Assembly: GCA_964369125.1 (NCBI GenBank)
Contig: CAYJEF010000002.1
Span: 1-34,640 of the forward strand
DNA length: 34,640 bases
From: an uncultured Christensenella sp.
GTDB lineage: Bacteria > Bacillota > Clostridia > Christensenellales > UBA1242
Reading direction: 5' to 3'
The notes under the pieces are model-generated. The model was not told the DNA's origin. It saw only the letters and a program-made list of their open reading frames with translations, and did no database searches. Made by a program: the position numbers and the translations under genes. Shown piece after piece: positions 741-34,316 of the stretch. Within the stretch, counting starts at the first letter, position 1. Each line of letters opens with the position of its first letter.

Positions 741-751
741 GTAAATGTTTG

Positions 752-789: not shown

Positions 790-792
790 GTT

Positions 793-3700
793 TTAACCTA
801 TCAAATTAACTATCGCTTCCATAGACAAACCAAAACCTTGAAAGAATTTAAACATTAATTCTGCGGCTTTGACATATTTCTCGCTCTGTTGAACAATGGA
901 TAATGATTTGAGCGGTCCAAGTAATGAGCCTGATATTATGCCCTTGATGATGCTAGAAGCACGTGAAATCAATTCCATTTTCCTCCAGCCAGCGCCTTGA
1001 ACAATCCTTATATTATCCCGCCATTTGGAAATTTTGGTTGGCATAACCCAGAACAAAAATACGTTTGTAGTTTCCTCTGTGTATCCATTCCCTTCCATAG
1101 ATGCAACAACTAGGTCCCATGCAAATAGAATGCTTGAAATTATAATGCCACCTGCGCCATTCTTTTCCTCCTCTCTCATTGCGTCAATAAGGGGCTTGAC
1201 TTGCGTGTATAGTTGATAGTAATCTTGCATCTTTGGACTCATATCTTGCATAAATTCGAATATATTGCCTTCTTTATGCCACCAATCTTCCATTCTAAAT
1301 GCCGAGAGGTCAGGACCGACATTGTCGACTAATCCGTTTACTGTAAGGTCTGGCTTTAGCATCATCCACACGACTGGTATGTAGAACGGGATCTCGAATT
1401 TGCCTATTATTCCAAGATTTATTTTAATAGGCGAGTATTTGAAGTAAATTTCAAGCTCGGAATAGTAGTTTGCACGTGCTTCAACATAGGTGCGTGGATA
1501 GAAATTGATATATTTTATATTTTTGAAACTAGTGAGAATCAAGCGCGAATCGAACTTAAAAGAATATCCAAACCACATAGAACCCTCTATATTGCCGTTG
1601 AAAGTTGCTTTGTCATACACATCGCTGATGCCTTGCCTCGACGCCTCATAGTTGCCGTCTAGACATGAGGAACTGTCGAGGTATAACGCCAAAGAGTAGC
1701 CCGAATTTGGAGTAAGTTCTTCGCCAGCAATTCTGTCAAGGGCGCTTTGTCCCGCTTGTTTCACAGCACCACCGTTAAACTGCACGTGCGAACCATTTAT
1801 GGCGTAGATGCCGTCGTAGTACATAAATTTATCTCTGCCGTCACCTTGGGCACTGTCGTTTTTGAATTCTTGCACAATCGCATAGGCGCTGCTGGCTGGG
1901 ATAACCATATATTGCCTTGCCTTATTGTTTTGAATGACACCGTTGCTGTTTAAATTTATTGTTGAACCACTGGCATATATACCACCACCGAATCCACCAA
2001 AATCACCACTGCCTGTCGCTTTGTTCCCTCCGATGTTGCTATTAAGAACAAGGGTGGAGTTTAGCAAATACACACCGCCACCTGCCTCGACTGCAACATT
2101 GTAACTGACGGTGTTGAAACTGGAATTTGCGTTTGTCGTGCCACCTGTGCTAATTGTCAACGTGCCATTTGCGAAGTATATACCTCCGCCTTTATTTGCT
2201 TTGTTAGAGAAGTAAAGCGGTTTGCCATTTAAGTCGTGACCCATTCTGCCAATATTGCATTTTGCAAGCGTGACTGTGGTGTTTGGCGCGCCCGATACAT
2301 ATAGTCCGCCACCATTACCTGATGCCATATTGCTGACAATATCAAGCACAGATTCTTCTGCTCCTGTCTTGCCGAGGGTTAAGGATTTTGCGTAAATTCC
2401 TGTGTCAAAATACACACCACCGCCGTTGCCACCTGCATAGTTGAAGCCTATTGTTCCGCCGTCAAGGTTGACTGTGGCGTTTGGCGCGATATATATTCCG
2501 CCGCCGTTTGCGCCCGCATAGTTGGAGTAACTTAAACTGCTGGCGGTGATTACTTCATTGTCTGAGGTGTCTGTTATATCCACGCCTATTGTGCCAGATT
2601 TCAAGTCGAACTTGCCGACGACATACACACCTCCGCCGTTACCGCTTGCCGTGTTGGAATAAATCTTTGAGCCTGAAATTGCCCTCACATCGCCACCACT
2701 ACCCACATAAAGTCCCGCTCCGTTTCTAGACATATTATTTGTCACTTTTGCCGAGGAACCGAGGGTGACATTCCCAGCATTCACGAAAATTCCACCGCCG
2801 TCATCTTTCGCCAAGTTTGAACTAACGTAACCAGAATTTACAACTAAAATGCCCGAGAATACGTATATTCCGCCACCGTTACCTGTTACAGCATTGTTGT
2901 TATTTATGCCATAAACTGGATTGTCACCGACAAGAGTTAAATCGATTGTCAAAGTGGTTGTGCCACCGTCGATGGCAATACCTCCGCCGTTACCTGTGAC
3001 GCTATTATTTGAAATCTTCGTGTTTTTCATAAGAATAGTGCCCGTAGAGAACATTCCACCGCCTTGACTGGTAGTGAGGGTGGTTGATGTGCCTGTGTTA
3101 TTCACCACCAACTTTCCATTATTCTCTATCTTTGCATATTCTAGGACAAAGTCGGCGGAACTTCCCACAAACACACCGGCGCCTTTATAGGCGAAGTTGT
3201 TGTGAATGTCCGCTTTGATTGTTGTTTTTTCCTCGATTGCGCCAATGGTTAATTTTGAACTGTTCACATACAAGCCACCGCCCTCACCAGTAACGTTATT
3301 TGCTGTCTTATTGTTTTTGATTATGACGCCAGGCAAAATGTTTGCAAGGGAGTTTGTGCCAAGGTAGATGCCACCGCCTTGAATTGTAACAGAGTTTGAT
3401 GAAATCATAGCGTTCATAACGTTTAATCGTGGGACTGAGTCTGCCGTTCCGTCCGCGTAAATACCGCCACCTTTCTCGGCTGTGTTATCTGTTATTTGCG
3501 TGCTGGACACGTTGGAAGTGACACCACCAAAGTTAAACGTGCCAGAAAATACGAACACGCCACCGCCATTTATTGCACGGTTATTTGAAATAACGCCATA
3601 ATCCATATGAAGAGCATTGCTGTCACCCGCGACGTATAGCCCGCCACCGTCCACTGCATAGTTGTCTTGAAGTATTACGCCCGAGTAGGTTGTCGTCCCG

Positions 3701-27700: not shown

Positions 27701-30700
27701 AGCGGATAATCGTATGTTGCTTGTGGGTCAAGGGTATAACTGGCGTTTGTCGCCGTTGTACCAAGTGCCGTGCCTTTTGGGTCTATTTCAATTGCAAAAT
27801 CTTTGCTTTGCCAGTTTGCAACCAGTGTTATATCACCTGCGGGCATAACAAAACTCCCCGAGACAATGTCGCCTGTCAGCATATTCAAAAAGTTTATAAA
27901 CGTATAAACTGGATACGTCCTGTTTTTGTCGAGACTATGCACACACACAAGTCCCTCAGCCGTCATATCCAAATAGTCCACCGAGGATTTATAGGCATAA
28001 CTAAGCGTAATAGAGGTCACATCTTCGTATGTTTGCCCCACAAATTCGCCCGAAAATTCCCCACCCGAGAAGTCATAAGTGAGTTCAAAAATTACCTCCG
28101 ACCATTGCGCTGTGAAATAGTATGTGGCATTAAAACCGTAGTCAAGAGTCCTAAAAATTGGACTGCTTATATAATATTCTCCGCCACGTTCGTCCTCATA
28201 GTGCGAAAATTCATAGCCCACGTCGCCATCGGCGCGCTCGTTTCTTGTGTCAACATAAAAGTCGCTAAGTAGGTTAATTTCGTCGCCAAAGCGATAAACG
28301 TTCGTGACAGTTTGCGACCTACTTTGCACGCCCAAAAGTCCACCATTGTCCGCCATATTCACGACAACATTTACATTAACGCCCACCCAAACGCAATAAA
28401 GCGAAATAACACCACTTGCGTCAATGTTAAAGTCTGGTTGCTTCATATAATATTTTGTAAATGTGCTCAGCGAAAAGGGGTCGCCCTCGCCGTTACTTAG
28501 GTTATTATAAGAATCAAGGTTGTAATTTACACGCGTGAAGTTTATCACTGTATCGTTGATTTTTGGCGATTGATTGCTTGGTTTTGTGAACATAACTTGC
28601 GTGCCATATGGCGCAGTGAACGATACAAATTGAGTGTCGCTAGCCGACGTGTTTGCATAGATTTTCATTGTCACCATCTGCACCCACACTGCCTGAAGTT
28701 GCACTGTTGTCTTGTTGATACAATTCACGGTGTCGCCCGCGAAATATGTGGTGTTACTCGCGTCAACGAAATTGCTTAGTTGGTGATATGCTTTCGCCAC
28801 ATTAGAGATAGTTGGCAGTTTATACCTTCCGCCCACTTTCACCTCAAGGGTCAAAAGTCCGCCGTTTATGTTGTAAGATTTCAAATTCTCACTGTTTTGG
28901 CTGGAATTTAGGTCGTAGTATGTGTAAATACTCTCTAAAAACTCCCCGCCGTCCAAGTTTATTTCCACGATTGCTATCTGCCTAGACCATCTTGCGAACA
29001 GAGTGAACACATAATATTGCACACCCTCAATAGTTTGCAATGTTAAAAAGTTTAGCATTGAATTGTCAAAAGTAATGTGCGAAGTGTAAAGGTTTTGCCC
29101 CGATGCAGAAGTCTGCCAACCCACAATCTCATAGTATTCATACACATATGGAATGTTTTGGTTTATGTTGTAAACGCTCCCATAAAGGATTGGTTTTGGC
29201 GTGACGCCGTCTGGCAACAGCCCGCTAACAGTCTCTTTCACTTGCCCAAGTCCATAACTTGCAGGACCGTTTTTGTCATACACCACCATAATCCTGCCAA
29301 ATTCATACACGGCATAAAGGGTGACATTGCTATTATCCCCTGTCACGGCGAAAGAAGTGGTATACACATTCGTCACATTTTCATTCACAATGTTTGGCGA
29401 ATATTCCTCCCCCCAACCCAAGAAATTGTAACCCTTGGTGCTTGGGAGTGAACCCACTGCAGTCATATAGGAGGTGTTTAAATTCGCTGTCTCTCCCGCA
29501 AATTTTGTGAAAGTGTGGCGCGTAACAAATTTATTTTGAGTTGTGTCGTAGACTTTCAGTTCAATATTTACAACAGATGCAACCCAATCCGCCACGAGAG
29601 TACAGTTACTTATTATTGTAACAGGGGGCACTTTTGCAGCGCCAAGAAGCCAACCCGCGAATGTGTGACTAGTGCCAGTTATTTCAAAATATATATTGTT
29701 TATATCGTTTGAAGAGAGTTGACTCCCAGCATAATATTCCTTTATGAAACTCGTGTCACTGCTTTCCACCCTGTTTGGGTCATAATGCGCCGTAACCGTC
29801 ACACCCTGCGGGAACGAAGCAGGCGCAACAAAACTAAACGTAACCGTGTGCGTCCAAATGGCATAGAGCGTTATCGTCCTTGTTTCATTGTTGCCATAAT
29901 TTGCTATGAGTTGCCTTGTTATTGTCGCCGTCTCTCCCCAACTAATAAGGTTTGACATTTCAGTTGGAAGACTTGAAATATCAGACGTATAGTACCACCC
30001 CGCGAAATTCCTGCCAGTGTATGATGTCGCGCCGTCGTTAGTTAATGAAAACGAAATATAATCGTCGCCCGCGTCCTCGCCCGTCACCACTTGCTGACGG
30101 ATTGTTTGCACGCTCGTGCTTCCGCCGTTTGCGCCAAACTGCACGGTGAAATATTCTTGCCACAATGCGCGAATATGCACGGTGTCACTCTCATTTTGCG
30201 CCTCAAAAAGTTTTGGGGTGGCAAACTCGTTTAAATCATACCTCAAACCGCTATAAGCAGTGCCTGTTATTTCGCCCAGCCCGTCCACAACGGAAAATGC
30301 AACAAAATCAAACCCCACGCGCGAGAGCCCTTCATAGGGCAAAAGTATGCCATTAGTATTTATATAGGTGTATGTTCGCTTGTAAATCAAAAATCCGTTT
30401 TCGTCCGTGCTATATGTGGCGTCATAGTTTTGTAGTTTTTGATTTTCCGTGTCCGACCAAGAGCCACCTCCCAAATCGACTAAAACTATGTATGTTTTCT
30501 CTTCCCAAAATGCCGTAAGCACCAACTCACCGTCGTCAAAGTCGCTGTTAGCAAACAGCCCAAATTCCGACTTTGAAAGTAACGAAATGCTAGAAGTTAT
30601 ATCGGCAGACTCAGTGCCAATGAGGACTCTTGAAAACGTGTAGTAAACGCCATTAAAATACTGTCTGTCGGTAATGTTAAATAATTCTTCAATTATAAAC

Positions 30701-33700
30701 TCTTCACCATATTTCAACAACGCTTGCTGAGTTGCGTTTGTGCCAATATTATCAATAAAGTTCAGGGTATATTCGGCGTCGTCCCAGTTGGACGTAAACG
30801 TTGTGTCACTTCCAATTTTAAGCACATAGTCCGGCAAAATAACATTGTCCAAAATTTCCACTTCGCCACCCTCGGTAATTCTAGTCACAATAGAGTTTGC
30901 CGAATAGTGAGTGAAAACTTTGTGCAAATATGTAAATCTGGACGCCATATCAAGAGCATAATCATAAGTAATGTCCACGGCTAAAACGACAAAATTTGGA
31001 TATTCCGCTGTGTCATAACTCGTCCCCACATATTCCACTATGCTTTGGTTAGTGCCGTTATTAGCCTTAAAGGTTACATTTTTCTTTGTTGCGATATACA
31101 TTTTATATATATATTTGTCGCCATCTTTTGACATTGTAGAGTTTGGTTCCGGCACGCTTAAAACAACCTGTTCTCCAAATGTATCATAATAATACGCTGT
31201 GGTTTCGGCGAGGTCGATAATAAAATCGATTTCCTTGCCGTTTGTAACTGGCAATCTGCCGTTGCTTTTAGACAAAGTGTACTCGCGAGACATGGGACCA
31301 GTTATGTCAAAATATGTCTTTGGGGTAAGGTTTATGGTAGCGTCTTGCTTGCTGTTGTATATTTTGACTGTCACCGTTTTTGGCTCCCATTTCGCCACAA
31401 ATAGGACGGAACTATTTACGTTTGCGCTTAAAAGTTCCACACCCGTTGATTGCAAAGATAAAACAAGTCCATTTGCAACCACTGCGTCATTTAGCGTCCA
31501 ACTAGCAAATTTATAATACTCGGTGCAAGTGAATGTGTTTTGTGGGAGTATAGAAATTTGCGCGCCATACGCCATTCTTTTAATTGCTGGAGAGACCCCG
31601 CCAGCCCCTGCCTTGCCGTCATCGTCGCCCTTCGTGAAGTTTAAAACATAAAACATAGCAAACAGTTCATATTCGCCATCAATGTTTATATTCAAATCTT
31701 TCAGTTGATTTGTTTCTTCGCTCGCTAAAAATTCGTCGCCCTCTCCGTTTGCAAGGGTGTTGAAATGCGTGAAATTATACCCCGAAATTTCATCACCCGC
31801 AAGGACAAACTCGCCCCCTCGTGATACAGCAATGTTTGCAGTTTGCGTCCTGTTTGCATAAAGGCAAACTTTCACATATGTAACGTCCACCCACACGGCG
31901 TAGAGTGTCATATTATTTTCGATGACGGCATTTAATTCGCCGTCAAATTCGTAAGTAACAATCTTGTGCTCGGCGTTTTCTTCGCTTGTCGCCCAGCCCT
32001 CGAAGTAATAACCCGAATATGTCATTTCGTTTTCGTTAGGGAGAGTTATTTCGCTTTCAAACAAAACTTCGGTAATTGTAAAGTTACTGTTTGAACCCTC
32101 ATATTCCCCACCGTTTAAGACGAAATTCACGGCATATTTTTGCTTTTCCCAACGCGCAAAAATTTCGCCAAAATTCTTGTCTATTCTTTTGCTCGTCTTC
32201 ATTTCGCTTTGTCCATCGTTTTCCACGATATTTTCGCCACCCGTGGCAAGCGAATACAATCCCACAAAATCATAGCCCGTTCGTTGCTGAACCATTTGAG
32301 AGATAAAACTGGTGGCGTTTGCGCTTTGCTTTAATGTCACAGTAACTGTGGTGACATTGCTGTTTTTTACGCATGTGACCTCGATATATATAAGCGAACC
32401 ATATGGCACACGTGCAGTTTTATACACAAACTCGTCGTCAATCTCATAAAAATTCACGACGACGTCTCTGTTTTGCCCCGTCCAGTTAATGTTTGCAATA
32501 AGTTTGCCGTCTGACAAAAGCACTTCAGTAATAGATAGCCGAGTGCCCGCAATATAAGAGTCGTTTTTGACAAGATAAGAACTCAAGTCGTAGTTTGGTC
32601 TAATGAACTCCGGCAAAATAATCGAGGCACCCACCAGCAAGTTTGTTATGGTTATCTTCATATTCTGCGCGTCAAACGAATACGAAATTTCCCCGTCATA
32701 CGAAAACTCGGGGTCACTTAAGTTGAAATTCACACCAAACAACTGCGCTAGTTCCGCATTCGTCGGGACAGTAACTTCGTCAATAATGTCGCCACCCACA
32801 AAAATTTCCGTAGAGACAACAATTTTCACAAACTGAGCAAAAAGCACAATCGCACCTCGCTTGCCCATATAGAAATAGTCGCGGTCATAATATGGCTCTG
32901 TCCAAAGGTTGACGTCGGCTGGAATCTCAAAGTCTTTTGCATAGCAGTTGCCCGTCTTGTCTACAAACCCAACGAGAGCATATCCCGCCTTTATCACAGT
33001 TGTTTCAAAATTCTCGCCCGCCCAGTCCGTCAGCATTTTCGCACTTCCGGCAGTGACACTCGTGCTACTCAGTAAGTCCCCGCCATTTGGAGCAGGGTCT
33101 TTTATAACAAGCGGAATACTAATCTCCTCCCACACGGCATAAAAGTCAATATAAGTCTCGTCGAGCAAAAATTCCCTGTCAATTCGCGCCACCGAATATT
33201 GACCAGTGCCCGAAGTTTTCGACATCGACCACCCGCTAAACTTGTGATAGAGCGGTTTTGTCTGCATAAAGTCCGTAACCCTAAAATCGTCCAGCAAATT
33301 GTAGTTAAGTTTTCCGTATGTAGTTTCTTTTGTGGCGATTTTGTCGTCGTATTCTGGGGTTCCGTAACCCTCTGGATACGACACGGCGTCGTAGTATGTC
33401 TCTACCGTGTCTTGGTTGGAATGATACACCAATGTCACTTTTTGTGGTGTTAAATTCACCCTAAATGCCATATTCTTGGACGGCGTAATAATGCTATTTC
33501 CTTCCGTCAAAGTTAAAATCTCCAAATCTCCCACGGTCTGTACATTATCGTTATCTCTCAAATTATTCGCAACATTCGTGGAAGTTAGCGTTGTAATTTC
33601 AAAGTAGTTTTCCAAAAATCTCACATAGTCGGCTTTTGTATATGTCGCCGTGGCGTCATTGATAATCTCCTCGTTTGCGCCGTCAAACCTAAACAATTTG

Positions 33701-34314
33701 TCATTATTGGCATAAAGTTGTCTTGTCGCGTCATTTTCAATCACGCTAAACGAAAGGTTGCGAATCATATCCGCGACATCGTCGAAATTTATTTCGCCCG
33801 TATAATACGTTGTCTTAATCTCGCCAAGGAAAATATCCCCGCCGTTTCGGTTATAATTGTTTTCTGCATAGAACCGGCAAGTCACTTCGCCGAGTTTGTA
33901 TCCTGCATAAAGAGTCATATCCGTATTCACTGGACCTCGCGAATAACGCTCCAATCTATCTTCGTCCAAAAACCAGCCGTCAAATTCCGCAAGCGTAGTA
34001 GTGCCTTCGTCGCTAACAATGTTAGCAGATTGTGGCAAAGTAAAATATCGACCCTCCGCCACATTGACATTTTCTTGTGTCGCAAAAGGTCCCGTCTCGA
34101 AGCGAACGGTGTAAGTTTTTTTTGAAAACATCATAACGCCAAAGACGATGCCAAATGTAACCACCAAAACAGAAATGACCGCCAGCAAAATGGCCTTCTT
34201 TGTAGGTCTTGGTTTTTCGAATTTATTGCCACGCTTTAGTGGCGCAGGTGTTTGTTTTACGCTTGCGTCTTTTTGCCTGTCACCCTGAAAATTTATATTT
34301 GTGGTGGACATCAT
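793..34314 (-). CDS. Giant (11,173 aa) N-terminally membrane-anchored surface protein: InlB-B/Flg_new repeat arrays + seven Pmp-type beta-helix cassettes + BspA-type LRR block + novel C-terminal domain
   Basis: The frame is uninterrupted for 11,173 codons. AGGAGG (34317-34322, minus) lies 2 nt from ATG 34312-34314 and 5 nt from the second ATG 34309-34311, so the true start may be 34311. The TAA stop at 793-795 is followed by a hairpin terminator. The translation shows coherent domain grammar from end to end. All boundary motifs I mapped back to DNA fall in the same frame. Confidence 0.93.
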   Translation of the reverse strand: MMSTTNINFQGDRQKDASVKQTPAPLKRGNKFEKPRPTKKAILLAVISVLVVTFGIVFGVMMFSKKTYTVRFETGPFATQENVNVAEGRYFTLPQSANIVSDEGTTTLAEFDGWFLDEDRLERYSRGPVNTDMTLYAGYKLGEVTCRFYAENNYNRNGGDIFLGEIKTTYYTGEINFDDVADMIRNLSFSVIENDATRQLYANNDKLFRFDGANEEIINDATATYTKADYVRFLENYFEITTLTSTNVANNLRDNDNVQTVGDLEILTLTEGNSIITPSKNMAFRVNLTPQKVTLVYHSNQDTVETYYDAVSYPEGYGTPEYDDKIATKETTYGKLNYNLLDDFRVTDFMQTKPLYHKFSGWSMSKTSGTGQYSVARIDREFLLDETYIDFYAVWEEISIPLVIKDPAPNGGDLLSSTSVTAGSAKMLTDWAGENFETTVIKAGYALVGFVDKTGNCYAKDFEIPADVNLWTEPYYDRDYFYMGKRGAIVLFAQFVKIVVSTEIFVGGDIIDEVTVPTNAELAQLFGVNFNLSDPEFSYDGEISYSFDAQNMKITITNLLVGASIILPEFIRPNYDLSSYLVKNDSYIAGTRLSITEVLLSDGKLIANINWTGQNRDVVVNFYEIDDEFVYKTARVPYGSLIYIEVTCVKNSNVTTVTVTLKQSANATSFISQMVQQRTGYDFVGLYSLATGGENIVENDGQSEMKTSKRIDKNFGEIFARWEKQKYAVNFVLNGGEYEGSNSNFTITEVLFESEITLPNENEMTYSGYYFEGWATSEENAEHKIVTYEFDGELNAVIENNMTLYAVWVDVTYVKVCLYANRTQTANIAVSRGGEFVLAGDEISGYNFTHFNTLANGEGDEFLASEETNQLKDLNINIDGEYELFAMFYVLNFTKGDDDGKAGAGGVSPAIKRMAYGAQISILPQNTFTCTEYYKFASWTLNDAVVANGLVLSLQSTGVELLSANVNSSVLFVAKWEPKTVTVKIYNSKQDATINLTPKTYFDITGPMSREYTLSKSNGRLPVTNGKEIDFIIDLAETTAYYYDTFGEQVVLSVPEPNSTMSKDGDKYIYKMYIATKKNVTFKANNGTNQSIVEYVGTSYDTAEYPNFVVLAVDITYDYALDMASRFTYLHKVFTHYSANSIVTRITEGGEVEILDNVILPDYVLKIGSDTTFTSNWDDAEYTLNFIDNIGTNATQQALLKYGEEFIIEELFNITDRQYFNGVYYTFSRVLIGTESADITSSISLLSKSEFGLFANSDFDDGELVLTAFWEEKTYIVLVDLGGGSWSDTENQKLQNYDATYSTDENGFLIYKRTYTYINTNGILLPYEGLSRVGFDFVAFSVVDGLGEITGTAYSGLRYDLNEFATPKLFEAQNESDTVHIRALWQEYFTVQFGANGGSTSVQTIRQQVVTGEDAGDDYISFSLTNDGATSYTGRNFAGWYYTSDISSLPTEMSNLISWGETATITRQLIANYGNNETRTITLYAIWTHTVTFSFVAPASFPQGVTVTAHYDPNRVESSDTSFIKEYYAGSQLSSNDINNIYFEITGTSHTFAGWLLGAAKVPPVTIISNCTLVADWVASVVNIELKVYDTTQNKFVTRHTFTKFAGETANLNTSYMTAVGSLPSTKGYNFLGWGEEYSPNIVNENVTNVYTTSFAVTGDNSNVTLYAVYEFGRIMVVYDKNGPASYGLGQVKETVSGLLPDGVTPKPILYGSVYNINQNIPYVYEYYEIVGWQTSASGQNLYTSHITFDNSMLNFLTLQTIEGVQYYVFTLFARWSRQIAIVEINLDGGEFLESIYTYYDLNSSQNSENLKSYNINGGLLTLEVKVGGRYKLPTISNVAKAYHQLSNFVDASNTTYFAGDTVNCINKTTVQLQAVWVQMVTMKIYANTSASDTQFVSFTAPYGTQVMFTKPSNQSPKINDTVINFTRVNYNLDSYNNLSNGEGDPFSLSTFTKYYMKQPDFNIDASGVISLYCVWVGVNVNVVVNMADNGGLLGVQSRSQTVTNVYRFGDEINLLSDFYVDTRNERADGDVGYEFSHYEDERGGEYYISSPIFRTLDYGFNATYYFTAQWSEVIFELTYDFSGGEFSGEFVGQTYEDVTSITLSYAYKSSVDYLDMTAEGLVCVHSLDKNRTYPVYTFINFLNMLTGDIVSGSFVMPAGDITLVANWQSKDFAIEIDPKGTALGTTATNASYTLDPQATYDYPLSLSDGKLILSGLKMQSEVDLSKLPTPSNFGFSYEYFYLLNSRTYTKTTTTVTSEDGKEIQYDEHNAIVFGKAGTFTLGYYDNENNLLNFDAFYVEQGDYFLLSMPLYWSNVEYTVSYEATLPSLENEYNVDASGQISLPTPDYVSTATFVYQEASKLNEGYLLFGWTQIGWSIKQKLSEQTLENCFYFMETYDPNIKGDVLNTEYIYNLTNVDGETVKLYPIWCQNEYTIDFSDRLYTNSNQEVPFLYDGTYTLGELFAFGGETLALTAFDFEANTYVQFAGWKYTNALGVEILLTQTENLLFSCGVGGIFSQAHMSGQSGALVVSAVWEEMSYTLRLNLNGGMYNTSEYGFNYYYDDTEGVKSYLIEKDIIYSLLKSGVSLTEYFELDEDMLIYRDANGNIFTFAGWSFGGDISELFYPALFEQDEMIFAKGSPSIRIELTSGIITPNYVFCLNAMWNYYKLTVDADGGEIDSGVVTVQETIGGISVRTKTAGGVKWIFASDDKSVYTYTYYMSTITLEVEGVYSWFVKNNYHVNAEGDENFEVTEESIKAVPWQGNLRYISLNPDKVEVVLDYTQLTNKETTVLNYGKAVVGYAEATSPTGSSYEYIYNAINDTGSFVPFALLEAGKVYYDAVSNGLVLIARFGDVIPYMLINQITFNVAGFEGWTDGIYNYSTMDLTLNDFIAGDNNKIILLKGIWDDVLVNYNLGGGEYNGNLTITPNSFINGSIILDEENETYIATLPPRKPDIHTDYGPYKYGYNFLGWSDEYVNYNSYNSAVQGGTTVTLYNPADDGGQEYSFARSVGMNSRTLYAIWQPLTISFKFVSSRNSDEQIINEKIVQGYFGETINFLSSNDADVSTWSKPGEYFIGWRIFIAPNQHNYAPNYEYLISESNIKSDFGSSVIITEGITFTVYSVWNNSRVNIQIVLGNDSDYKYFGDSVLNVYNSATIGKYFLIEGKSLEQEFITPVLEEIYCFGKVAIKYTSSKILYDLGSSDPIRLSIDKCTANADGTYTLTLNVVWQEAVCYIENYYSMRSGTERFYYNFASALGATQNDPEIATKSLEQNPYTKIVILNRLSQFEIINQINLTNIKLIIALYNNPEHTELIVNSEFMFTRAPSFSGDNVFNVTGGVLEFEGSENGTFTLNGYSAMPTGAFIKLNAGTLVLCKDFVIRNNKNSLTNFGGAIFAENGSRIISNGAQFIGNKLQTLSANLYGGAIYLNNSTLVLNSAIFANNSVESTLGAYGGAVAMENDSVITFGDANFLSNIATSLSGSSYGGAVYLKNSFASTLNDAQKVTFGKGTNDASGNSAIYGGAIAVDGNASVSVGDVITFDKFIVQYSTSTYGGGIYVTNAVLNINNIEFSMNTGLGSGDSFGGALYAEFSSTVTVTEGSFYLNSGTQGGAIYSSSNNLTINGGIYNYNMSNASSGAGGAIYIIGSVGNFAKLNVNGADVGGNYAVMGGGIYVGEYATLIVDDYTDAEGVVIGTYFHGNQANNGGAIYYSGTQIAESDENYSTLVSRINSAEFVGNVCQSADGSFSNMTYRGGAISMISGVLYLGGTHIDTDGKMSSTVMFYGNGAHYGGAVYVAGGNLNILGADIGIFHIDELDNSEMGEDDESLDEALAIGLLQLETARDNAISDINTDATLSPEQKSVAIKAVNDDYEAGCAQLTAEIERRKAEGADPTLVENYLGNYGYTGAGLYVAGGTVDMDFGNFFGNMGYDNAGAIYNAGTLYLGSVVIKMNTSLNNILIYNDGELEFDGNVILGEGQKIFVNFVSYVDTDGKQVDEYKYLTISSGIYNELTVPVVIDFPREDFVLGKPIVKFTNISVFNTVNALFEGGYTPFKIHNEVDFILIVDIVGKALVLGFPNYSLFYRDISADSAELDITGSMTFTYNDTVSQRDLLDKSLGNNPIREGYNLVGWAIYVERDELGNIISFGRPSPASSVEVFEVMALSTDPYYTNFVYVTRVGQTYATFTSAVAGKALPNHNIYIYAVWEPVEFTVYYQYDTVFDRYPGTTYYSIDGRQLTDDNLLLLSQTVKYGKTFRLPQSSTLSSVEFVHYEDVTVTYLGSVPIRVVDKQTTYEESDIYFDANRDKYYYTTADSLVYYIDTGTKAFTVFSKPNMALNNADAYKDANIYPESISFTDADTTVTLNITVENEKYVFIYNSLKYYLRQNYRPDGFYFKQYVLGGNIYVPNQEITVIKTNPNTNTADRRIYVTIYFTKMSVEVVFDANGGTDGSTTFSITKSVGTKLVLPNSYSSTPYDNIERFFYKQNSVLLGFARTPNASAPDFSLGQEITIIESSTGVTTFYAVWGPAVCYVENVVRYNNRFYNVYYTSFNAAFDDINAQIYNVKPARYVVKILTSVVVNTQVDISDNVAIYAVNSGLTVSPGSGLGANFTMFTVKSRGMLTLSEGLNGGIPYTLSNARNLDGTFVTRNVSLIKVEAGGTLEISGINIVGGTAQSSRNGGAITVKGTANFSGVSFINNSAQSGGALYVESSANVQVTSCLFGTASQGNTATLNGGAIYAEADAHITLFGENSFIYNTANSGGAIYALASDIILGNTLFAYNTATLNGGALYLGTNFVLSQNSQNKPTFESNFATVGGAIYATSKLEILFGEIFLKNTAGQKGGAIYSQTNLVIKSGRFEANTSSSENGGAIYAMGVLNINSENCASGENTLFIRNSANASGGAVYAIDAVVNIADVLFGMGSTSNGNTAYEGCAIYVTTSLTNYSSLNISGGTIIEMNYSKNVVGNTSGGGIYINNTTLILDAIVIRNEVVAGAGIYATGNSSIILGDNARVMHNIATSGAGIYLAGNSQIAMSSGAQITQNEAYFGGGGLYFATVNVYSSLGAGKIYRNKAGKAGAAIYMSSSSVKLTLNGVEITENVILTNAGYQTNLATEVLGEEIYIDKNATLEIASGVILGTIGINSSVEDSYSNEKGTLVLSGTAYVKDIYVKRFSVIRVDNNLTNVRYGTEKSTINYIGAKDLELKQKLENDEVVKFANISILENCKEYFVLNIIDTGVLGNYCLDYNETDCTLYIAKVAEYFYLEKNGGEITFGSQVNYVAEYDANGNFKRFKVAIDPTQTYFVTLSEIFGTRIGYEMSGEFVDSKNKIYTANSLLPVKVLTLKPLWVERVVNVFSFYENSSGQTVTTDLGYLRFTGSIVLTAPTMRYCTFVEWELSYLSPSGMVHTGITFNNAHRFELKYMDDIARTTEIGGVIYTYAEVFNLIIAQGGSNLYFEGIFSWTQVTIEIDANGGITSNLIDSPYDRIAGDDPQNTWIYTVLQKDLFVDYIIFIDDFKRDNHIVLSFFTGDDGVFDGAIDEKYNDSNSSIKISNITYIKLHCEWMETVAYIRKPSTGASVNEPRFVYYQNLTDATNALVNGDTLVIVKRNIEIYSNITISRNITLTSIADVRLVRMGAFSDYMLSIGAQVEITSPANLVIDGDNILTNCAGVYVMPNGNLTIGTGVKIINHASSSNGGGIKSAGVCTLNGGEISANSAQNGAGIYLAGTLIIKGSTKINGNTATVNGGGVYMASSTFEMQGGEIIGNGAIKGAGVYFSSSSNSKMTGGIISTNTASSAGGGVYLSANCATFTFGAGIIAETTFNIFGNSAIYGGGIYVEGSNLNTIVVANINGVVVKGNSATYGGGVCVGDNQNTHSKHSVVLTTGEIKNNTATYGGGVCVFRGTFNQRGGSIFANENTEGGLGSDVYITSNISAGIVRISGGVIGGSAYVGTIYVDNTVIAGELYLSGRYAIADRIILKNGAIIYVNDVIDANNDKVVVELTDYAPVIAGGKVNVVKFASNLTPIARLFDVDDSYKQEQSTNHFRVKVIDQYVVLQKAVFTLTISANDGTLYNALSGMNVTLSAGNIIIEIEYLYDLSLILSRFETALSLLNGEQKISVSQRNKYFIEWNSSATADGDKLTDILMPYEDVTAIAIWSKKYFVLTVDFNDTAGMSGNKAILSSSSQYYTYIDGSKIVVEIFADNETSTFGNAVIFDIMANLTRAGYTLRGVSASQIASANVYDATTLTFKMPQNDTILYASWAPITYTMIFHSNYMGVVTQTTHEVTALFDTFAFMAEKTKFTLAGYIADSWNTTIDGTGTTYGFGERVFNLAITDNTVLDFYCIWTPRQYTVNFAPNFSHGAITGEISSILVTYGEYFNLPTDKFLAVGYHQVAWKLGEQILGETARNLTIGDEVTVYADWEANKYTVKLYANPTSVNDLGEEVRMEYNTSSYLPAVADFPTDIRERVLKIGNQKYFKGWTTSTDPLATEPEFLDQDTILNLTAEDNVIIKLYAIVEYRKVIVHSNDGSDFTLENFCDIDGNVVISTADIVSAGFGVAGFEAGYLSKTADISTTGALMFNFGGIASLNLKDEDIGVLELFVAWRAKNYTIKYMINNQIDANFTIQTVTVSSSATNTYNGIGATTQITLHGNRNAQYMLVGYSFSNNLSTIDCTLNEVFTLSMAKFASIITNQAIVNDTITLYGVMTASYSITYDLNTSYDIIGGSTTQILPNGTNTTAVLDLSTQTALAFADKDNKEWFVADREENVFALFMGWALLSTANEAQFTSPQNVNGQNAVKFSGEITLYAVWREYSNPFYFEYSGTTITGLSALGKSEISANSELILPRYILNFANNTVTLGSAITIVGELENCNELSNITSVDLECMANLVSISKFAFRHLTNLNSVLNIPKDTVVEAGALVNTNLTTVTLSPQNTRYKTDEDGNFYDLSNGVKLHTYLIANSILGAYEMSMVNIARNNVNITALSSLCFYGTEFTSVLCSNLVTRIEASAFENMPNLTEISLPYVGETINDSNNFAFSFGGLSKLPTALVKVTIRLETKVKASAFEGCSMLTSIIFAKVIDEVGERAFYNCTNLEFESLQSEFKFKKLKTIGKQAFYNCINLPDEINFDALENIAEEALYGTNVVFVILPRTVLGVNVTAFYSSTLQFAEIYSTMAFNAVINGTNILQKPDTTSYVVTDVNFYVSLSGIYLNYNIVVSDIIARFNADKEFVENHSTIELALYSSTVGDYIMIKHNITISDTIIVDKDVTILAGYESLREGQDGYSYNDREITILRDQNFTGNVFEVVSHNVTFGGTFGTARGVEYKSPMLNLDGNGITGDSFIFVNSGTLTLSQNVFIFNTKSLAGSAVYVQNGTLTITGAVLHDNGDTTATINGGAIYANSSTVAIKGGEIYGNYAQNGGAIYLDTGSRLVINEDTSSVYIHSNSSINGGAIFVGTGILDEGSCVDISSAEIFNNQAQTGGSIFISDGFVKLHGGALIYSSVATNGGGVAVMNGTLLIENATIGMQTRNSQLNDLRMPVIGNEATSAGGGVYVGASGILKMNDARATISSNTAKFGGNIHFASQIMESWGASNVLMGRIEYGNSSVESNFGGGIYVESGLVNLSGNSLFILNNVAYFGGGIYMAGGVLNIKLGTTISGNESVSGGGVYVEDGEAYISGANIFSNKATAQNGVGGNGGGLHAMGGNIEIGMTSPRTYIGGTMAGNEASNLGGGLYLSGTAQVTLSRFTSIQENSASSGAGVFVSGSVVVRFDGCEISYNNAGAQGGGVYFTTDTFGNSPNITMFNNTRIFDNTAATGAGLYVNTNLTILNATIENNIAKDIAGVATKGRGGAIYITNTAAVILDAVTISHNMSEVDQDKYSGVFLNNTSPNALSISNSTEIDFSDETARNMVCLVENSLVTIIDKTLETSPRIMLAFDFNYLANDRTLVATFTRSSYARVSKFFGIGVGFTLIDTNVYVGRATVVDITDQSKPENYTTLKDAIMQIPSNERRILKLLDEQVIGENSVVIVPQDKDVVIVSSQSPVFGATQLGYGITRDSLYTGVLFAVYGRIEFNLDSAQSLSQMLNMGFIISGGAVNNASSLVYIGATGIAVVNDGVEIIGNNATNTRKLQLVTPNTGVIETIDGNRGGAFYVNANNSLSFSLKIVSAKIYACSATYGGAIYVENGKVELYGGEYGIYDEQMLSYQNVAQKDGGAIYVNSGILEISKNVSKRAIFSGNVAENGGAIHNEAGQIIISGTDFINNSASVRGGAISNNSQVTSTITSINFEDNFAKNGGAISVSKGTLNITSCEFSDNIAYSFGGALELSGDSMVRVTFSAMTGNYAQTGGAIHLDGNMLSNEYNLVVESSIISSNGTGTLPDSSHKTTTRGGAISIVRGKARVDIEQNMSEISQNTAQMGGGLYISGGIIDIYKAQIISNIASTGGGLYITSGGVVNLYATSVLSNRVLDTTNSFGGGIYQDSGTLYLYKYNEVACDISGNTSFGAGAGLHLIGGYANMSTGSCSITNNVINATDATTMENKRGAGLYIGGANVDMTSINVLNNTITAVTDVDVYGAGIYHTGGVVNVLGRCYFENPTTSINSGAICTEIASDEHNLFTLAGQSDALIDTILIAGKDAYLNVKESTIDIADVNLFDGSVRSVTLGVSGKMLGDRVFRAVLSSSLSGSQGVQNSLLGQITLPVASGFLLGQSDMRGEGNFAVLRAQYFQVVRAVGSGASETYELAYGTETLKEALSLVDDGGLIFINVTGSVNNVYEVYETLYSNYSGTHKSFTLSAKQTEITLLRGRTEAGEFEGEMFNILSGDTLYIGMNPAFERAYLQFCGADYENNTITIQGGKSNSTTLDVHNSSSRLINIARNATLWLGVGVTLTREWTEWYGAAALVQGTLYLAGGEISNNRSVSDDMESTNGNGGGVYVTNSGAFYMTCGVISGNFATKYGGGVYCGPSSVIEISGGIIGDGTKSTVATTSVYSNTARYGGGIYAIGTTVDICGTAKIAYNYASISGGGIYAKSTITAAASNPIQVIIDKNGSDTVAISYNFAGTSGGGLYVEDTYNFVANSQKSFGDKIVLCMYGGEISHNMSGMGGGVYVTGYTTTADEYAEGYNTAVSLLGGTIVGNTASVGAGLGGGLYVTGVELHIDGTKITHIAQNDATNGAGIYSHKSLITITRNATFTQNGTVTTTSGGGIYVNAYSILTLGDENSSSVTLSNNMATNGGAVYMENRAKVTIESASITNNTAVNKGAGVYVVTGRSHNFTIGSGLNEGQMTYISTYLNITDEVYIEGDSIVYVNGGYNGNVPLNLATDYAHTDYLTLVAMYSNAITDLATINEMLFVGFDSSGEEYTFIIDDFNVLIGEKNVAKIANDVTRYFMDIETALLRLDENVESIIIVLKDDMYTKEKTLDISGEYMLTINSGYIDENKQLIVGTELKRFHNGTVDDMFRITLTGSNSYLNIMNFNLIPYIDSFGNISPTASSIIEVISGNVNISNVMIDGAKGSNDGTALNVLGGLVTAENLTVKSSSTFGNGLIAVKNDGSLDLRQSIVTENTASKGAIFIQANHSASGSSALDFGTVRLLGSQISYNETSLGGGVYLASGKLMSAGTLNDPYTSIKGNTANMGGGIYIESGIVSLEDLKVSDNQALSIGNNALSNGGGIYVDSAIMTLGSNVYVSSNEAKVNGGGIYGTISSSIIVTENIDKITQNTANNGGGIYSAGALSLLNSSIWKNSANENGGGVYSTGTVDLDGTTLYENIANNGAGLYVAGIADVANGSILSGNNAEENGGGAYVSASGELQILGTQNASKIILNTAQNGGGVYVAGGYLVLNGGRIGDEITSGDGTTTQNFGNKVTKLLQVTATGNGAGVALMNGGVFDIISGKITGNESTEVIEEGETSVNHSRGNGGGIYVGGGTVNMTGGEISHNVADNGGGVYLTNSTSVFNMLSSNALCTKNIAIFGAGLYGAGASTINAEAGTISFNVAEIGGGGIYAEQSIVNINSLTSTVSITENSSSGNGGGIYVGAKAILTLSGTSQVSMNTALEQGGGVYVDAVNISRAHFGTFNMTGGVISENTAQNGAGVAVIGINTSVTDYHFGVFTMSGGQILNNDAVIAGGGVYSAGKFVMNKISAQITQNIAVNGAGVYVAGGALDLTSGAIYDNGDDEKTNGGGLYLTATDTLYSSYVLGGVQIKNNNALKGGGIYFERGTTTYSGVILQDNYAVDGGGLYVAGDSNALHMDYGVISNNRAINGGGVFVFSGTFNFGGVTSNVSSTQITDNTAEKGGGIYADGTADSVPRLNVMNAMISSNSVTIQGGGIYLGTNSLANILPGVIIKNNKTANNVTGEGGGLYVNSSKLTIGAIEEKTTIKADIHNNFAYKGAGVFVGSSADFVLEYAKIENNGKLVVNNTGTSTTLTTSQGGGMFSTGTILMKNTKISNNSVTGNGGGIAIDGGTTTLTIDLTLVGDNPVYGINNNNAVTGNGGGIYVFSGILVVNSGYVSSNLAKDDGGGIFVNAGNVTLGSSAKVTNNMSRNGAGLYVGSGGDVRAISGSKIYSNTASGNGGGVYVVGKFDLKSGTIGVDITDTSDNEVITASSLSYSNYAGANGGGIYIAPNATVNLDGGTIGFNYAGGNGGGVYFDTGIYAKSLTLGKTGAEESVLDIVSNMASGNGGGLYVSGAPNTTVTLAKCNIGRMGHDLNGKPLYFSNKANKGGGIYFANGTLTISTGGTTNANSSFNTVSYNVAVEAGGGVYLLNSTLVLNSNIGGNKATGSGDFGGFGGGIYASGSTINLNSNGVIQNNKARQYMVIPASSAYAIVQEFKNDSAQGDGRDKFMYYDGIYAINGSHVQFNGGAVKQAGQSALDRIAGEELTPNSGYSLALYLDSSSCLDGNYEASRQGISDVYDKATFNGNIEGSMWFGYSFKFDSRLILTSFKNIKYINFYPRTYVEARANYYSELEIYFKYSPIKINLGIIGKFEIPFYIPVVWMMLKPDLTVNGLVDNVGPDLSAFRMEDWWHKEGNIFEFMQDMSPKMQDYYQLYTQVKPLIDAMREEEKNGAGGIIISSILFAWDLVVASMEGNGYTEETTNVFLFWVMPTKISKWRDNIRIVQGAGWRKMELISRASSIIKGIISGSLLGPLKSLSIVQQSEKYVKAAELMFKFFQGFGLSMEAIVNLIG
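796..1647 (-). other. C-terminal non-repeat domain (aa 10890-11173), unassigned; contains hydrophobic segments
   Basis: After the last degenerate beta-helix coil (..ALYLDSSSCLDGNY, Y10889 = 1648-1650) every repeat pattern stops. The sequence continues with MWFGYSFKFDSRLILTSF.., YYSELEIYFKYSPIKINLGIIGKFEIPFYIPVVWMML, then QDYYQLYTQVKPLIDAMREEEKNG. Next comes a hydrophobic 21-mer GAGGIIISSILFAWDLVVASM (aa 11053-11073, nt 1096-1158), then TNVFLFWVMPT and an amphipathic tail ending ..EAIVNLIG. Confidence 0.7.
1648..6231 (-). repeat. Beta-helix cassette 7 (aa 9362-10889), Pmp-type GGG[IV]Y/FxxN-like coils, about 40 turns by hand count
   Basis: N-cap: ..VTRYFMDIETALLRLDENVESIIIVLKDD. Roughly 40 repeats follow of the form N(G/A)GG[IVL][YF]..G..(L/I).(L/I)....I..N.A, for example NGGGIYVDSAIMTLGSNVYVSSNEAKV. 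Start anchored by G9361 = 6232-6234. Confidence 0.75.
6232..8181 (-). repeat. Beta-helix cassette 6 (aa 8712-9361)
   Basis: N-cap: ..ELAYGTETLKEALSLVDDGGLIFINV. GGGVY/GGGIY/GGGLY coils. C-terminal stalk: ..NLATDYAHTDYLTLVAMYSNAITDLATINEMLFVGFDSSGEEYTFIIDDFNVLIG. Anchors: R8711 = 8182-8184, G9361 = 6232-6234. Confidence 0.75.
8182..10407 (-). repeat. Beta-helix cassette 5 (aa 7970-8711)
   Basis: N-cap: ..PENYTTLKDAIMQIPSNERRILKLL. There are nine GGA[IFL]x coils (GGAFY, GGAIY x2, GGAIH x2, GGAIS x3, GGALE), followed by GGGLY/GGGIY/GAGLY coils. Stalk: ..VTLGVSGKMLGDRVFRAVLSS..GNFAVLR. Anchors: G7969 = 10408-10410, R8711 = 8182-8184. Confidence 0.75.
10408..12708 (-). repeat. Beta-helix cassette 4 (aa 7203-7969)
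   Basis: N-cap: ..ENHSTIELALYSSTVGDYIMIKHNITISDTIIVDKDVTILAG. Coils: GGAIY x2, GGAIF, GGSIF, then GGGVY/GGGIY/GGGLY. Stalk: ..IMLAFDFNYLANDRTLVATFTRSSYARVSKFFGIGVGFTLIDTNVYVG. Anchors: D7208 = 12691-12693, G7969 = 10408-10410. Confidence 0.75.
12709..13917 (-). repeat. BspA-type leucine-rich repeat block (aa 6800-7202)
   Basis: Repeated I..I...AF..C..L..I motif. Examples: LVSISKFAFRHLTNLNSVLNIP, VTRIEASAFENMPNLTEISLP, KVKASAFEGCSMLTSIIFA, DEVGERAFYNCTNLEFESL, LKTIGKQAFYNCINLPDEINF, NIAEEALYGTNVVFVILP. This is the LRR_5 (BspA-like) signature as I know it. Start anchored by W6799 = 13918-13920. Confidence 0.7.
13918..16173 (-). repeat. InlB-B / Flg_new-type repeat array 4 (aa 6048-6799), about 8 units
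   Basis: Units end in TAIAIW, TILYASW, LDFYCIW, VTVYADW, IKLYAIV, LELFVAW, ITLYGVM, ITLYAVW. Internal G[YF]..xxW motifs are present (AGYIADSW, VGYHQVAW, YFKGW, FMGW). Anchors: A6048 = 16171-16173, W6799 = 13918-13920. Confidence 0.7.
16174..17646 (-). repeat. Beta-helix cassette 3 (aa 5557-6047)
   Basis: Begins VAYIRKPSTGASVNEPRFVYYQNLTDATNALVNGDTLVIV. Coils: GGGIK, GAGIY, GGGVY x2, GAGVY, GGGIY, GGGVC x2. Stalk: ..VVELTDYAPVIAGGKVNVVKFASNLTPIARLFDVDD..HFRVKVIDQYVVLQK. Anchors: V5557 = 17644-17646, A6048 = 16171-16173. Confidence 0.75.
17647..18570 (-). repeat. InlB-B / Flg_new-type repeat array 3 (aa 5249-5556), about 3-4 units
   Basis: Units end in LTLKPLW, YFEGIFSW, IKLHCEW. Contains EKNGGEITF and IDANGGITS (the NGG start motif of these repeats). 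Confidence 0.6.
18571..20751 (-). repeat. Beta-helix cassette 2 (aa 4522-5248)
   Basis: Begins VCYVENVVRYNNRFYNVYYTSFNAAFDDINA. Classical Pmp grammar with paired motifs: FINNSAQSGGALY, FIYNTANSGGAIY, FAYNTATLNGGALY, FESNFATVGGAIY, FLKNTAGQKGGAIY, FEANTSSSENGGAIY, FIRNSANASGGAVY. These are followed by GGGIY/GAGIY coils. Stalk: ..KFANISILENCKEYFVLNIIDTGVLGNYCLDYNETDCTLYIAK. Anchors: C4523 = 20746-20748, K5248 = 18571-18573. Confidence 0.8.
20752..22098 (-). repeat. InlB-B / Flg_new-type repeat array 2 (aa 4073-4521), about 4-5 units
   Basis: EGYNLVGW...IYIYAVW; VVFDANGGTDGSTTFSITKSVGTKLVLP...LLGFARTPNASAPDFSLGQEITIIESSTGVTTFYAVW. Anchors: N4073 = 22096-22098, C4523 = 20746-20748. Confidence 0.65.
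22099..24627 (-). repeat. Beta-helix cassette 1 (aa 3230-4072), with helical insertion
   Basis: Begins VCYIENYYSMRSGTERFYYNFASALGAT. Paired coils: FIGNKLQ..YGGAIY, FANNSVESTLGAYGGAVA, FLSNIATSLSGSSYGGAVY, FSMNTGLGSGDSFGGALY, FYLNSGTQGGAIY. Stalk: ..VVIDFPREDFVLGKPIVKFTNISVFNTVNALFEGGYTPFKIHNEVDFILIVDIVGKALVLGFP. Anchors: A3229 = 24628-24630, N4073 = 22096-22098. Confidence 0.8.
22636..22893 (-). other. FIVAR/DUF1542-like alpha-helical insertion inside beta-helix cassette 1 (aa 3808-3893)
   Basis: IDELDNSEMGEDDESLDEALAIGLLQLETARDNAISDINTDATLSPEQKSVAIKAVNDDYEAGCAQLTAEIERRKAEGADPTLVEN. This is the only long Gly-poor, charged, helix-prone stretch in the protein. Its pattern, A..A..(I)..I...(T)LS.EQK..A...V......(A)..I, resembles FIVAR-type three-helix repeats of Gram-positive surface proteins. 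It is flanked on both sides by GGAVY / GAGLY coils. Anchors: H3807 = 22894-22896, G3896 = 22627-22629. Confidence 0.5.
24628..34116 (-). repeat. InlB-B / Flg_new-type repeat array 1 (aa 67-3229), about 30 units of roughly 100 aa
   Basis: Units are recognisable by the terminal strand: LYAVW x2, LYAIW x2, FARW, FVAKW, LTAFW, IRALW, LVADW, LFARW, LQAVW, LYCVW, FTAQW, LVANW, LYPIW, VSAVW, LNAMW, LKGIW, VYSVW, LNVVW and others. They also carry the internal aromatic-GW motif: SGYYFEGW, KGYNFLGW, YGYNFLGW, RNFAGW, HTFAGW, FTFAGW, YEIVGW, QFAGW. Many begin with ..F..NGG / LNGGEY / LDGGEF / NLGGGEY. Confidence 0.75.
34126..34194 (-). other. N-terminal transmembrane signal-anchor helix (aa 41-63)
   Basis: AILLAVISVLVVTFGIVFGVMMF is preceded by a Lys/Arg/Pro-rich 40-aa segment (..LKRGNKFEKPRPTKK) and followed by SKK. 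This is positive-inside topology. I can see no AxA cleavage site and no lipobox Cys. Confidence 0.75.
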
Positions 34315-34316
34315 TT

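Follow-up and report, generated by a model that had tools for sequence, protein, structure and literature searches.

A 33.5-kb bacterial gene encodes an 11,173-residue repeat protein, a candidate fixed-length fibrillar adhesin with a predicted N-terminal membrane anchor

The window analysed here, a 34,640-nt stretch of DNA (contig CAYJEF010000002.1, positions 1 to 34,640), is filled almost entirely by one gene, which lies on the minus strand and encodes a protein of 11,173 residues. The reading frame is intact, the product combines adhesin-type domains with the topology signals of an N-terminally inserted membrane protein, and comparison with two orthologues reveals purifying selection and a conserved length. 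We favour, with a confidence somewhat above even, the interpretation that the product is a fibrillar adhesin or aggregation protein of fixed length, anchored at its N-terminus. Its export, its extension and the retention of an uncleaved anchor are what the sequence would predict, and an adhesive function is suggested by the domain content.

The preliminary description of this DNA had reported an unbroken open reading frame (ORF) between 793 and 34314 without specifying the strand. Translation of the minus strand gave this frame in full, with a single in-frame stop, at its end. A stop codon is expected about every 17 codons at this base composition, and the chance of a frame of 11,173 codons is ~1e-302. 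The ORF holds zero N bases, and its GC content is 44% compared with ~33% in the flanks. On the opposite strand, 14 ORFs of 104-183 aa run antisense to the gene (window 5633-34125, plus strand), and are most likely by-products of its codon composition.

No orthologue could be named in the preliminary description. A family search across 5.8 billion protein clusters, 185,579 species-representative genomes and JGI metagenome contigs found two other members, both uncharacterised; the clusters returned one fragment for the query aa 1-1000, and the genome and metagenome scans gave one locus each. No characterised orthologue, which the preliminary description had named as a possible refutation, turned up. 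The two members are L001, in a gut metagenome-assembled genome (MAG) labelled "uncultured Christensenella sp.", and L003, on a metagenome contig (Table 1), while L002 is a Logan contig (SRR34068983) of the L001 species, 99% identical to L001. Both orthologues are collinear with the window protein and 40-49% identical to it, with very few gaps: aa 29-5720 of L003 align with window aa 23-5725 in one BLASTP segment of 49.4% identity, with ~100 gap positions per side in 5,802 columns. At 35,850 bp (L001, gene start at nt 71) and 55,377 bp (L003, gene start near nt 21,062), either contig could accommodate a gene of ~33.5 kb, and the comparison covers the window protein up to aa 5,725. In bins of 500 aa, nucleotide identity is highest at second codon positions (0.64-0.76), lower at first positions (0.56-0.70) and far lower at third positions (0.35-0.43), which indicates purifying selection on the protein. 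Collinearity is kept despite marked differences in GC content, which is 0.44 in the window ORF, 0.35 in L001 and 0.395 in L003. Relative to L001, the gene in L002 is split by a 1-nt indel (~6300), most simply an assembly or read error, and for this reason the protein database holds just a 925-aa fragment (P0001). In L001, 100 N at 2879-2978 stand in for 559 nt present in L002, and as 100 and 559 both leave a remainder of 1 when divided by 3, the gap does not disturb the frame. The family has so far been seen only in Christensenella-like bacteria.

The expression signals of the gene are also shared with its relatives. The Shine-Dalgarno site noted earlier (AAGGAGGA) is kept in both orthologues, and the string ACTACTA[A/T]GGAGGAA is identical in the aligned upstream regions of the window, L002 and L003. 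An ATG-ATG pair stands directly 3' of this site; its distance from the second ATG is the more typical one, and translation may therefore yield 11,172 aa. The window and both relatives share homology over about 140 nt 5' of the gene, with a mean column identity of 75%, and this leader holds a TTGAG-N17-TATTAT-like element together with the Shine-Dalgarno site. Promoter-like sites upstream of the gene are no more frequent than expected from shuffles, and the one listed in Table 1 aligns with similar elements 5' of both orthologues. The terminator that had been proposed is likewise present, as a hairpin common to the giant gene and a convergent zf_Tbcl gene.

The N-terminal transmembrane (TM) anchor claimed for the protein was recovered as one strong helix with a K/R-rich stretch ahead of it. 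Kyte-Doolittle (KD) hydropathy reaches 2.91 at aa 42-60, the sole window above 2.0 in the whole protein, and the first repeat unit begins at most 3 residues after this hydrophobic stretch. The pattern KPR.TKK.ILLA...G.V.GV...KK.YTV is kept in L001 and L003, and no small-x-small motif was seen by eye after the H-region of the window protein. The product is therefore predicted to be almost wholly extracellular and tethered at its N-terminus; with an uninterrupted ORF of more than 10,000 codons and an export signal, it belongs among the giant bacterial surface proteins.

To map the repeats, Pfam was run on 1,000-aa chunks, with curated cut-offs for Flg_new, Chlam_PMP, LRR_5 and the NCBIfam model POMP_repeat; three chunks and the last 1,273 aa were without any Pfam match (E<=0.01). 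Of the four adhesin repeat families claimed in the preliminary description, Flg_new, Chlam_PMP/POMP and the BspA-type leucine-rich repeat (LRR) family LRR_5 all score above their cut-offs, as the profile searches proposed there had anticipated, but FIVAR (PF07554) has no match at E<=0.01 in any chunk of the whole protein, which is thus built of three recognised repeat families and not four. What was taken for FIVAR is probably the one helical insert of the protein, an acidic stretch in the first beta-helix module, where a scan of aa 3790-3905 gave DUF1542 as the sole hint (E=0.054, 14 bits against a cut-off of 24.3). The blocks add up to 4,743 aa of B-type repeats in four arrays, 5,622 aa of beta-helix in seven modules, 458 aa of LRR and a C-terminal domain of 284 aa, which approximately reproduces the earlier sums (4,672, 5,748, 403 and 284 aa), the last being identical.

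Table 1 Features of the window and of the two orthologous loci. Window coordinates are in nt, residues are those of the giant protein; HMM, hidden Markov model
Feature	Residues (aa)	Position	Strand	Basis or remarks
Giant coding sequence		793..34314	-	11,173 codons plus TAA stop; ATG start; predicted 1.205 MDa, isoelectric point 4.5
Shine-Dalgarno site AAGGAGGA		34316-34323	-	read from sequence; 1 nt from first ATG, 4 nt from second
Promoter-like element, TTGAGT-16 nt-TATTAT with TG extension		34386..34413	-	consensus scan
Conserved leader/promoter region		window 34309-34450; L002 3395-3535; L003 6425-6568	- (window)	three species
Bidirectional hairpin terminator, 17-bp stem		751-788	.	A-run on one side, T-run on the other; immediately 3' of stop
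K/R-rich cytoplasmic segment and TM helix, predicted signal-anchor	1-40 and 41-63	34126..34314	-	hydropathy
B-type array I	67-3229	24628..34116	-	Flg_new 47.1 bits; custom HMM; motif enrichment
Beta-helix module 1	3230-4065	22120..24627	-	self-BLAST; GGxIY motif map; POMP_repeat 16.2 bits against 15
Acidic alpha-helical insert of ~100 aa in module 1 (…SPEQKSVAIKAVNDDYEAG…)	3801-3900	22615-22914	-	DUF1542, sub-threshold
B-type array II	4066-4521	20752..22119	-	custom HMM at aa 4066-4203 and 4410-4521
Beta-helix module 2	4522-5203	18706..20751	-	Chlam_PMP 57.5 bits; POMP_repeat 95.8 bits
B-type array III	5204-5556	17647..18705	-	relaxed HMM alone, aa 5204-5360 and 5408-5578; end motifs by eye
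Beta-helix module 3	5557-6031	16222..17646	-	self-BLAST; motif map
B-type array IV, eight contiguous units	6032-6802	13909..16221	-	custom HMM; Flg_new_2 17.9 bits, below cut-off
BspA-type LRR region	~6803-7260	12535..13908	-	LRR_5 57 bits against 27.7
Beta-helix modules 4-7	7261-7965, 7966-8712, 8713-9362, 9363-10889	1648..12534	-	Chlam_PMP 49.5 and 21.1 bits; POMP_repeat 37.2 and 25 bits
Orphan C-terminal domain, 284 aa	10890-11173	796..1647	-	no homologue or family
zf_Tbcl gene (PF13451, 87 bits), 54-aa treble-clef zinc ribbon		576-740	+	own AGGAGG site; convergent
L001 orthologue		contig CAYIZE010000004.1, start at nt 71		GTDB representative MAG; open over all 4,015 codons covered
L003 orthologue		JGI metagenome contig Ga0247841_10001389		no stop in the 5,720 codons covered

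The B-type repeats are members of the InlB B-repeat/Flg_new family, with a Pfam score of 47.1 bits for aa 1-1000 (cut-off 27; best stretch aa 727-807). Array I consists of ~30 or more tandem units of 80-150 aa, which start with Y.V.F..NGG and end with hydrophobic-x-A-x-W, motifs that are enriched 10-28x over shuffles. While the family assignment made earlier thus stands, Pfam alone sees only 8 of 31 single units (Flg_new in seven and Flg_new_2 in one, at E<=0.1) and the others need a custom profile. This HMM was grown from segments anchored on the LYA.W end motif, and iteration 11 was used, later iterations having drifted longer; it found 32 units at i-Evalue<0.01 and 0 in a locally shuffled control, and a relaxed version covers most of the gaps between them. 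One of the 32 (aa 4621-4732, 12.7 bits) sits inside beta-helix module 2 and was treated as a probable false positive. Array III is the weakest of the four. The profile of 31 aligned units, searched against the PDB sequences, gave the isolated InlB B-repeat 2y5p_A as the top match (E=0.0026), aligned along the entire domain, and next came full-length InlB entries, matched in that same region. An AlphaFold2 (AF2) model of one unit invisible to Pfam had a confidence (pLDDT) of only 69.6, and its Foldseek list, rich in MucBP and beta-grasp domains, held no significant match (best E 0.19), a result which is compatible with the B-repeat fold but not diagnostic of it.

The 31 units are mutually only 9-24% identical while the orthologues remain collinear, from which it follows that each unit is individually conserved and that the repeat number is fixed. 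Stalks of the 'periscope' type have near-identical tandem DNA repeats with copy-number variation. Neither property was found here: there are no near-identical DNA repeats, and the copy number in the orthologues is unchanged over 5,700 aa.

The seven beta-helix modules contain all of the 113 GGxIY-type motifs (GG[A/G/S][ILVM]) of the protein, at a median spacing of 30 aa, and a cap-like segment lies N-terminal of each module. Chlam_PMP (PF02415, cut-off 20.6) scores 57.5 bits for aa 4001-5000, 49.5 for aa 8001-9000 and 21.1 for aa 9001-10000, and POMP_repeat (TIGR01376, cut-off 15) scores 95.8, 37.2, 25 and 16.2 bits. With an alignment of 52 homologues, AF2 folded aa 10174-10890 into a beta-helix, with pLDDT values mostly between 80 and 97, and the top Foldseek matches of this model are all right-handed beta-helices, among them Ag43, pertactin, tailspikes and polysaccharide lyases; at E-values that are without exception above 1e-3, these matches indicate the fold class only. 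The query aa 10174-11173 matched 605 database proteins; among the matches listed, the beta-helix part alone was aligned, at 25-33% identity, and PF13229, PF02415 or PF05048 were carried. The BspA-type LRR region, proposed earlier, is supported by LRR_5 (PF13306), whose best stretch is aa 7047-7154, with a weaker match at aa 6846-6925.

The C-terminal domain, by contrast with the beta-helix that precedes it, is an orphan. It found no relative in a word-indexed search of 5.8 billion protein clusters and no homologue in a full HMMER search of 1.84 billion representative proteins, scans of metagenome and viral contigs were blank, and there was no match in Pfam (E<=1), NCBIfam, PHROGs or the PDB sequences. 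AF2 models it as helical with pLDDT ~30-55, the low confidence being due to an alignment that does not cover the domain. It includes a moderately hydrophobic 19-mer at aa 11053-11071 (KD 1.84). A GxxxGxxxG pattern, considered as a hint of membrane insertion, was dropped, as it occurs 7x in this glycine-rich protein.

In the arrangement that we favour, the N-terminal TM helix, with its positively charged cytoplasmic side, would target the nascent chain to Sec and would stay in the membrane as the anchor, leaving the other ~11,100 residues outside the cell. The proximal third, ~30 or more B units of beta-grasp type, would form a stalk crossing the wall and extending beyond it, and in the distal two-thirds short B-type spacers would alternate with the seven right-handed beta-helix modules and the one LRR. 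The likely interaction surfaces are the beta-helix modules, the LRR and the 284-aa tip domain. Assuming ~0.48 nm per beta-helix coil of ~28-30 aa and a few nm per B unit, the extended molecule would measure roughly 250-300 nm, and the few hundred nm suggested earlier was a reasonable estimate. The likeliest role would be adhesion to, or aggregation with, like cells, partner microbes or host or dietary glycans, and the nearest solved folds of the beta-helix model include self-associating, adhesive autotransporter passengers (Ag43, pertactin). The surface fibril or adhesin of the preliminary description is borne out as regards the intact gene, the adhesin-type domains and a predicted extracellular location, while adhesion itself is deduced from the domains.

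Cultured Christensenella flocculate and hold Methanobrevibacter smithii inside the flocs (PMC7002349). As relatives of the protein occur in Christensenella-like genomes and cultured species flocculate, cell-cell aggregation is a plausible role, and by analogy the protein is an attractive candidate for such a role in this lineage. For the aggregation of cultured members of this group and their physical hosting of methanogens, a conserved fibril of fixed length with diverged repeats and an orphan tip would be a concrete candidate.

Several points weigh against an anchored adhesin. The support for it comes from sequence comparison and predicted models, and the link to Christensenella is drawn from the name of a MAG whose orthologue is 40-49% identical. 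Signal-peptidase cleavage and release of the chain could still take place. The C-terminus (...SMEAIVNLIG) has no LPXTG motif, the sole LP.T[GAN] being at aa 1021, and lacks the combination of motif, TM helix and basic tail that marks a sortase-anchored adhesin; NCBIfam gave no sorting-signal model in the C-terminal part, and no wall-anchoring module was matched by NCBIfam or Pfam in the last 1,273 aa. The beta-helix fold is found in polysaccharide lyases and hydrolases too. Finally, the distal half of the protein, aa 5,726-11,173, is known from the window alone. This last point, together with the probable origin of the window in a metagenome assembly and the frameshift in L002, would speak for an assembly artefact or a decaying pseudogene, an explanation that we find barely credible. 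Apart from the negligible chance of such a frame, over its first 5,725 aa the protein runs parallel to that of an independent contig, with substitutions of the coding type, and the L002 frameshift comes down to a single 1-nt indel against the 99%-identical L001. The DNA repeats in the ORF, all of which code for the GGxIY motif, are too short and diverged for a short-read assembler to join reads wrongly across them (the longest pair measures 64 nt with 73% identity, the most similar one 33 nt with 91%), so that repeat collapse is unlikely as well; at the protein level, self-similarity by self-BLAST is <=58% over 100-aa tiles.

Other functions can also be envisaged for an intact protein. A non-adhesive coat or spacer, a layer of fixed length that sets the distance between cells or shields them against phage or host factors, would agree with the strict conservation of repeat number and length between ~49% identical orthologues, and with repeats that are not homogenised, unlike those of variable-length adhesin stalks. 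We nevertheless regard it as unlikely, since LRR and PMP-type beta-helices are classic binding surfaces, and an abundant coat protein would not be expected to have a single gene copy and to belong to so rare a family as this one seems to be. It seems decidedly improbable that the stalk belongs to a contact-dependent effector that presents its C-terminal domain for insertion or delivery into a neighbour membrane, like CdiA-CT on the end of its beta-helical filament, even though this homologue-less domain follows a long beta-helix and contains the 19-aa hydrophobic segment and predicted helices, and polymorphic toxins typically have tips that evolve fast. No toxin family matched the C-terminal domain, the Pfam and NCBIfam scans revealed no pre-toxin, TPS, LXG or Rhs feature, and the stop codon is directly followed by the terminator and the convergent zf_Tbcl gene, with no candidate immunity gene downstream. 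Taking together the strictly conserved length, the tether at the N-terminus and a C-terminal domain without homologues, we derived a further idea, to which we assign a similarly low probability: a monoderm 'molecular harpoon', a filament with a fixed reach of a few hundred nm whose tip would engage or insert into the envelope of a specific partner, for example a hydrogen-consuming methanogen in Christensenella flocs, or of a competitor. If true, it would represent a new contact-dependent interaction system, unrelated by homology to contact-dependent inhibition (CDI), to LXG toxins of the type VII secretion system (T7SS-LXG) or to autotransporters. Small, too, is the probability we give to a surface array for nutrient capture, in which the beta-helices would be lyase- or hydrolase-like enzymes or glycan-binding modules. 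The Foldseek matches include PL6 alginate lyases, GH55, phage depolymerase tailspikes and the NosD fold, many homologues of the beta-helix part bear PF13229 or PF05048, and giant Omnitrophota proteins have been proposed as carbohydrate degraders (bioRxiv 10.1101/2023.11.21.568195). However, no enzyme family is significant, the structural matches extend to fold class only, and the repeats are of the non-catalytic GGA[ILV]/FxxN polymorphic membrane protein (PMP, Pmp) type.

Read as an anchored adhesin, the protein combines building blocks of several known systems. It shares the ~70-100-aa unit and the Y.V.F..NGG ... GY.F.GW ... LYA.W motifs with the InlB B-repeat/Flg_new (PF09479) proteins of Listeria, Bacteroides and gut Clostridia and with the archaeal 'List-Bact' repeats (PMC7883539), but has ~45-50 divergent units, many with long insertions and most of them invisible to Pfam singly, and has neither an N-terminal LRR-IR cap nor a GW or LPXTG anchor as in InlB-type proteins. 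With chlamydial Pmp proteins and type V autotransporters (Ag43, pertactin, Hap) it has in common the GGA[ILV]/FxxN repeats and the AF2-predicted right-handed beta-helix, whereas its anchor is N-terminal, its seven modules are separate within one chain and its host is probably a member of the Bacillota. Pfam found no autotransporter beta-barrel or PMP middle domain (last 1,273 aa at E<=0.01; last 300 aa at E<=1) and the AF2 tail is helical and of low confidence; without a barrel, it is not an autotransporter of chlamydial type. The LRR_5 region (57 bits) is shared with BspA of Tannerella forsythia and LrrA-type proteins, but here it is one ~450-aa module within an 11,173-aa chain, and the type IX secretion system C-terminal domain is absent.

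As regards size, Ebh of S. aureus, with ~10,000 aa, is a giant surface protein of Gram-positive bacteria. Giant1-5 of Apilactobacillus kunkeei have 3,000-8,000 aa (PMC12863079), and like Ebh they are megadalton, elongated, repeat-built extracellular proteins of Bacillota, with beta-solenoid modules proposed as ligand binders. They have no sequence homology to the window protein, in which FIVAR-GA, a serine-rich region and LPXTG are absent, the beta-helices are distal and C-terminal, and a TM helix at the N-terminus serves as the predicted tether. The adhesin-like proteins of gut methanogens also combine parallel beta-helices with Listeria-Bacteroides repeats and are presumed to act in cell-cell attachment (PMC7883539); they are far smaller and belong to another domain of life, so that the likeness is one of building blocks alone. 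Giant proteins of Omnitrophota (bioRxiv 10.1101/2023.11.21.568195) are likewise rare, longer than 10,000 aa and mostly extracellular, with domains found by segment-wise structure prediction, but they have many TM helices, SecA-DEAD and peptidases, whereas here there is one TM helix and none of those domains.

UniProtKB holds more than 41,000 proteins of >=5,000 aa, among which surface proteins are a major bacterial group (PMC11573180), and several phyla have proteins longer than 10,000 aa, with lengths beyond 30,000 aa even in Firmicutes (bioRxiv 10.1101/2023.11.21.568195). With 11,173 residues, the window protein is among the larger bacterial proteins. The preliminary description had singled it out as a candidate for something undescribed, which holds for the family, and our literature search listed no paper that pairs a Christensenella-type name with giant or huge proteins; giant repeat-built surface proteins, on the other hand, are a well-known class, so that we see here a new and very rare family of a known kind. 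It is not an LPXTG adhesin, a FIVAR/Ebh-type protein, a CDI toxin or a variable-length 'periscope' stalk. What sets it apart are non-homogenised repeats at fixed copy number, a tether at the N-terminus and not the C-terminus, and an orphan tip, and it is a useful counter-example to length-variable adhesin stalks.

The remainder of the window consists of short flanks. Its first 99 nt (1-99, plus strand) contain the 3' end of a gene (…YENNAKFFYNQKVKVVDKIKSNSFNIKGYLIN, followed by the stop), with no Pfam match, and the exact sequence of the zf_Tbcl protein has no record in the assembly index. The gene next 5' differs between the loci: in L002 and L003 it is Tex, which is not found there in the window. 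We saw no evidence that the giant gene is phage or plasmid cargo, as aa 1-1000, searched by tblastn, had no match in the phage and plasmid collections and a viral contig scan with the orthologue alignment found nothing.

At 322-360 (plus strand) lies the 3' end of a tRNA- or tmRNA-like sequence, with a T-arm (GGTGGTTCGAGTCCACT), an acceptor strand and ACCA, but no 5' half, and a terminator-like hairpin follows it within 322-464. ARAGORN reports no gene at 322-464. Rfam HPnc0260 scores 62.6 bits (gathering cut-off 59) on the minus strand at this position, which is explained by its model, whose 3' end is antisense to a tRNA-like end of this type. The sequence could be the att-site scar of an integrative element. 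At the other edge of the window, an open frame (...NKVLFVELEDEDDFPQEVNGLVAMKLSAHHKHPTLLGRLNSEG, ~34495-34640, plus strand) has 37.5% identity (E=2e-3) to RecJ-like single-stranded DNA exonucleases, aligning with residues ~345-391 of 580-aa Staphylococcus phage proteins of this kind. It has no upstream in-frame start codon and no Pfam match, and is probably a 5'-truncated gene remnant that adjoins the promoter of the giant gene on the opposite strand. The remnant gene and the tRNA-like scar hint that the locus has moved.

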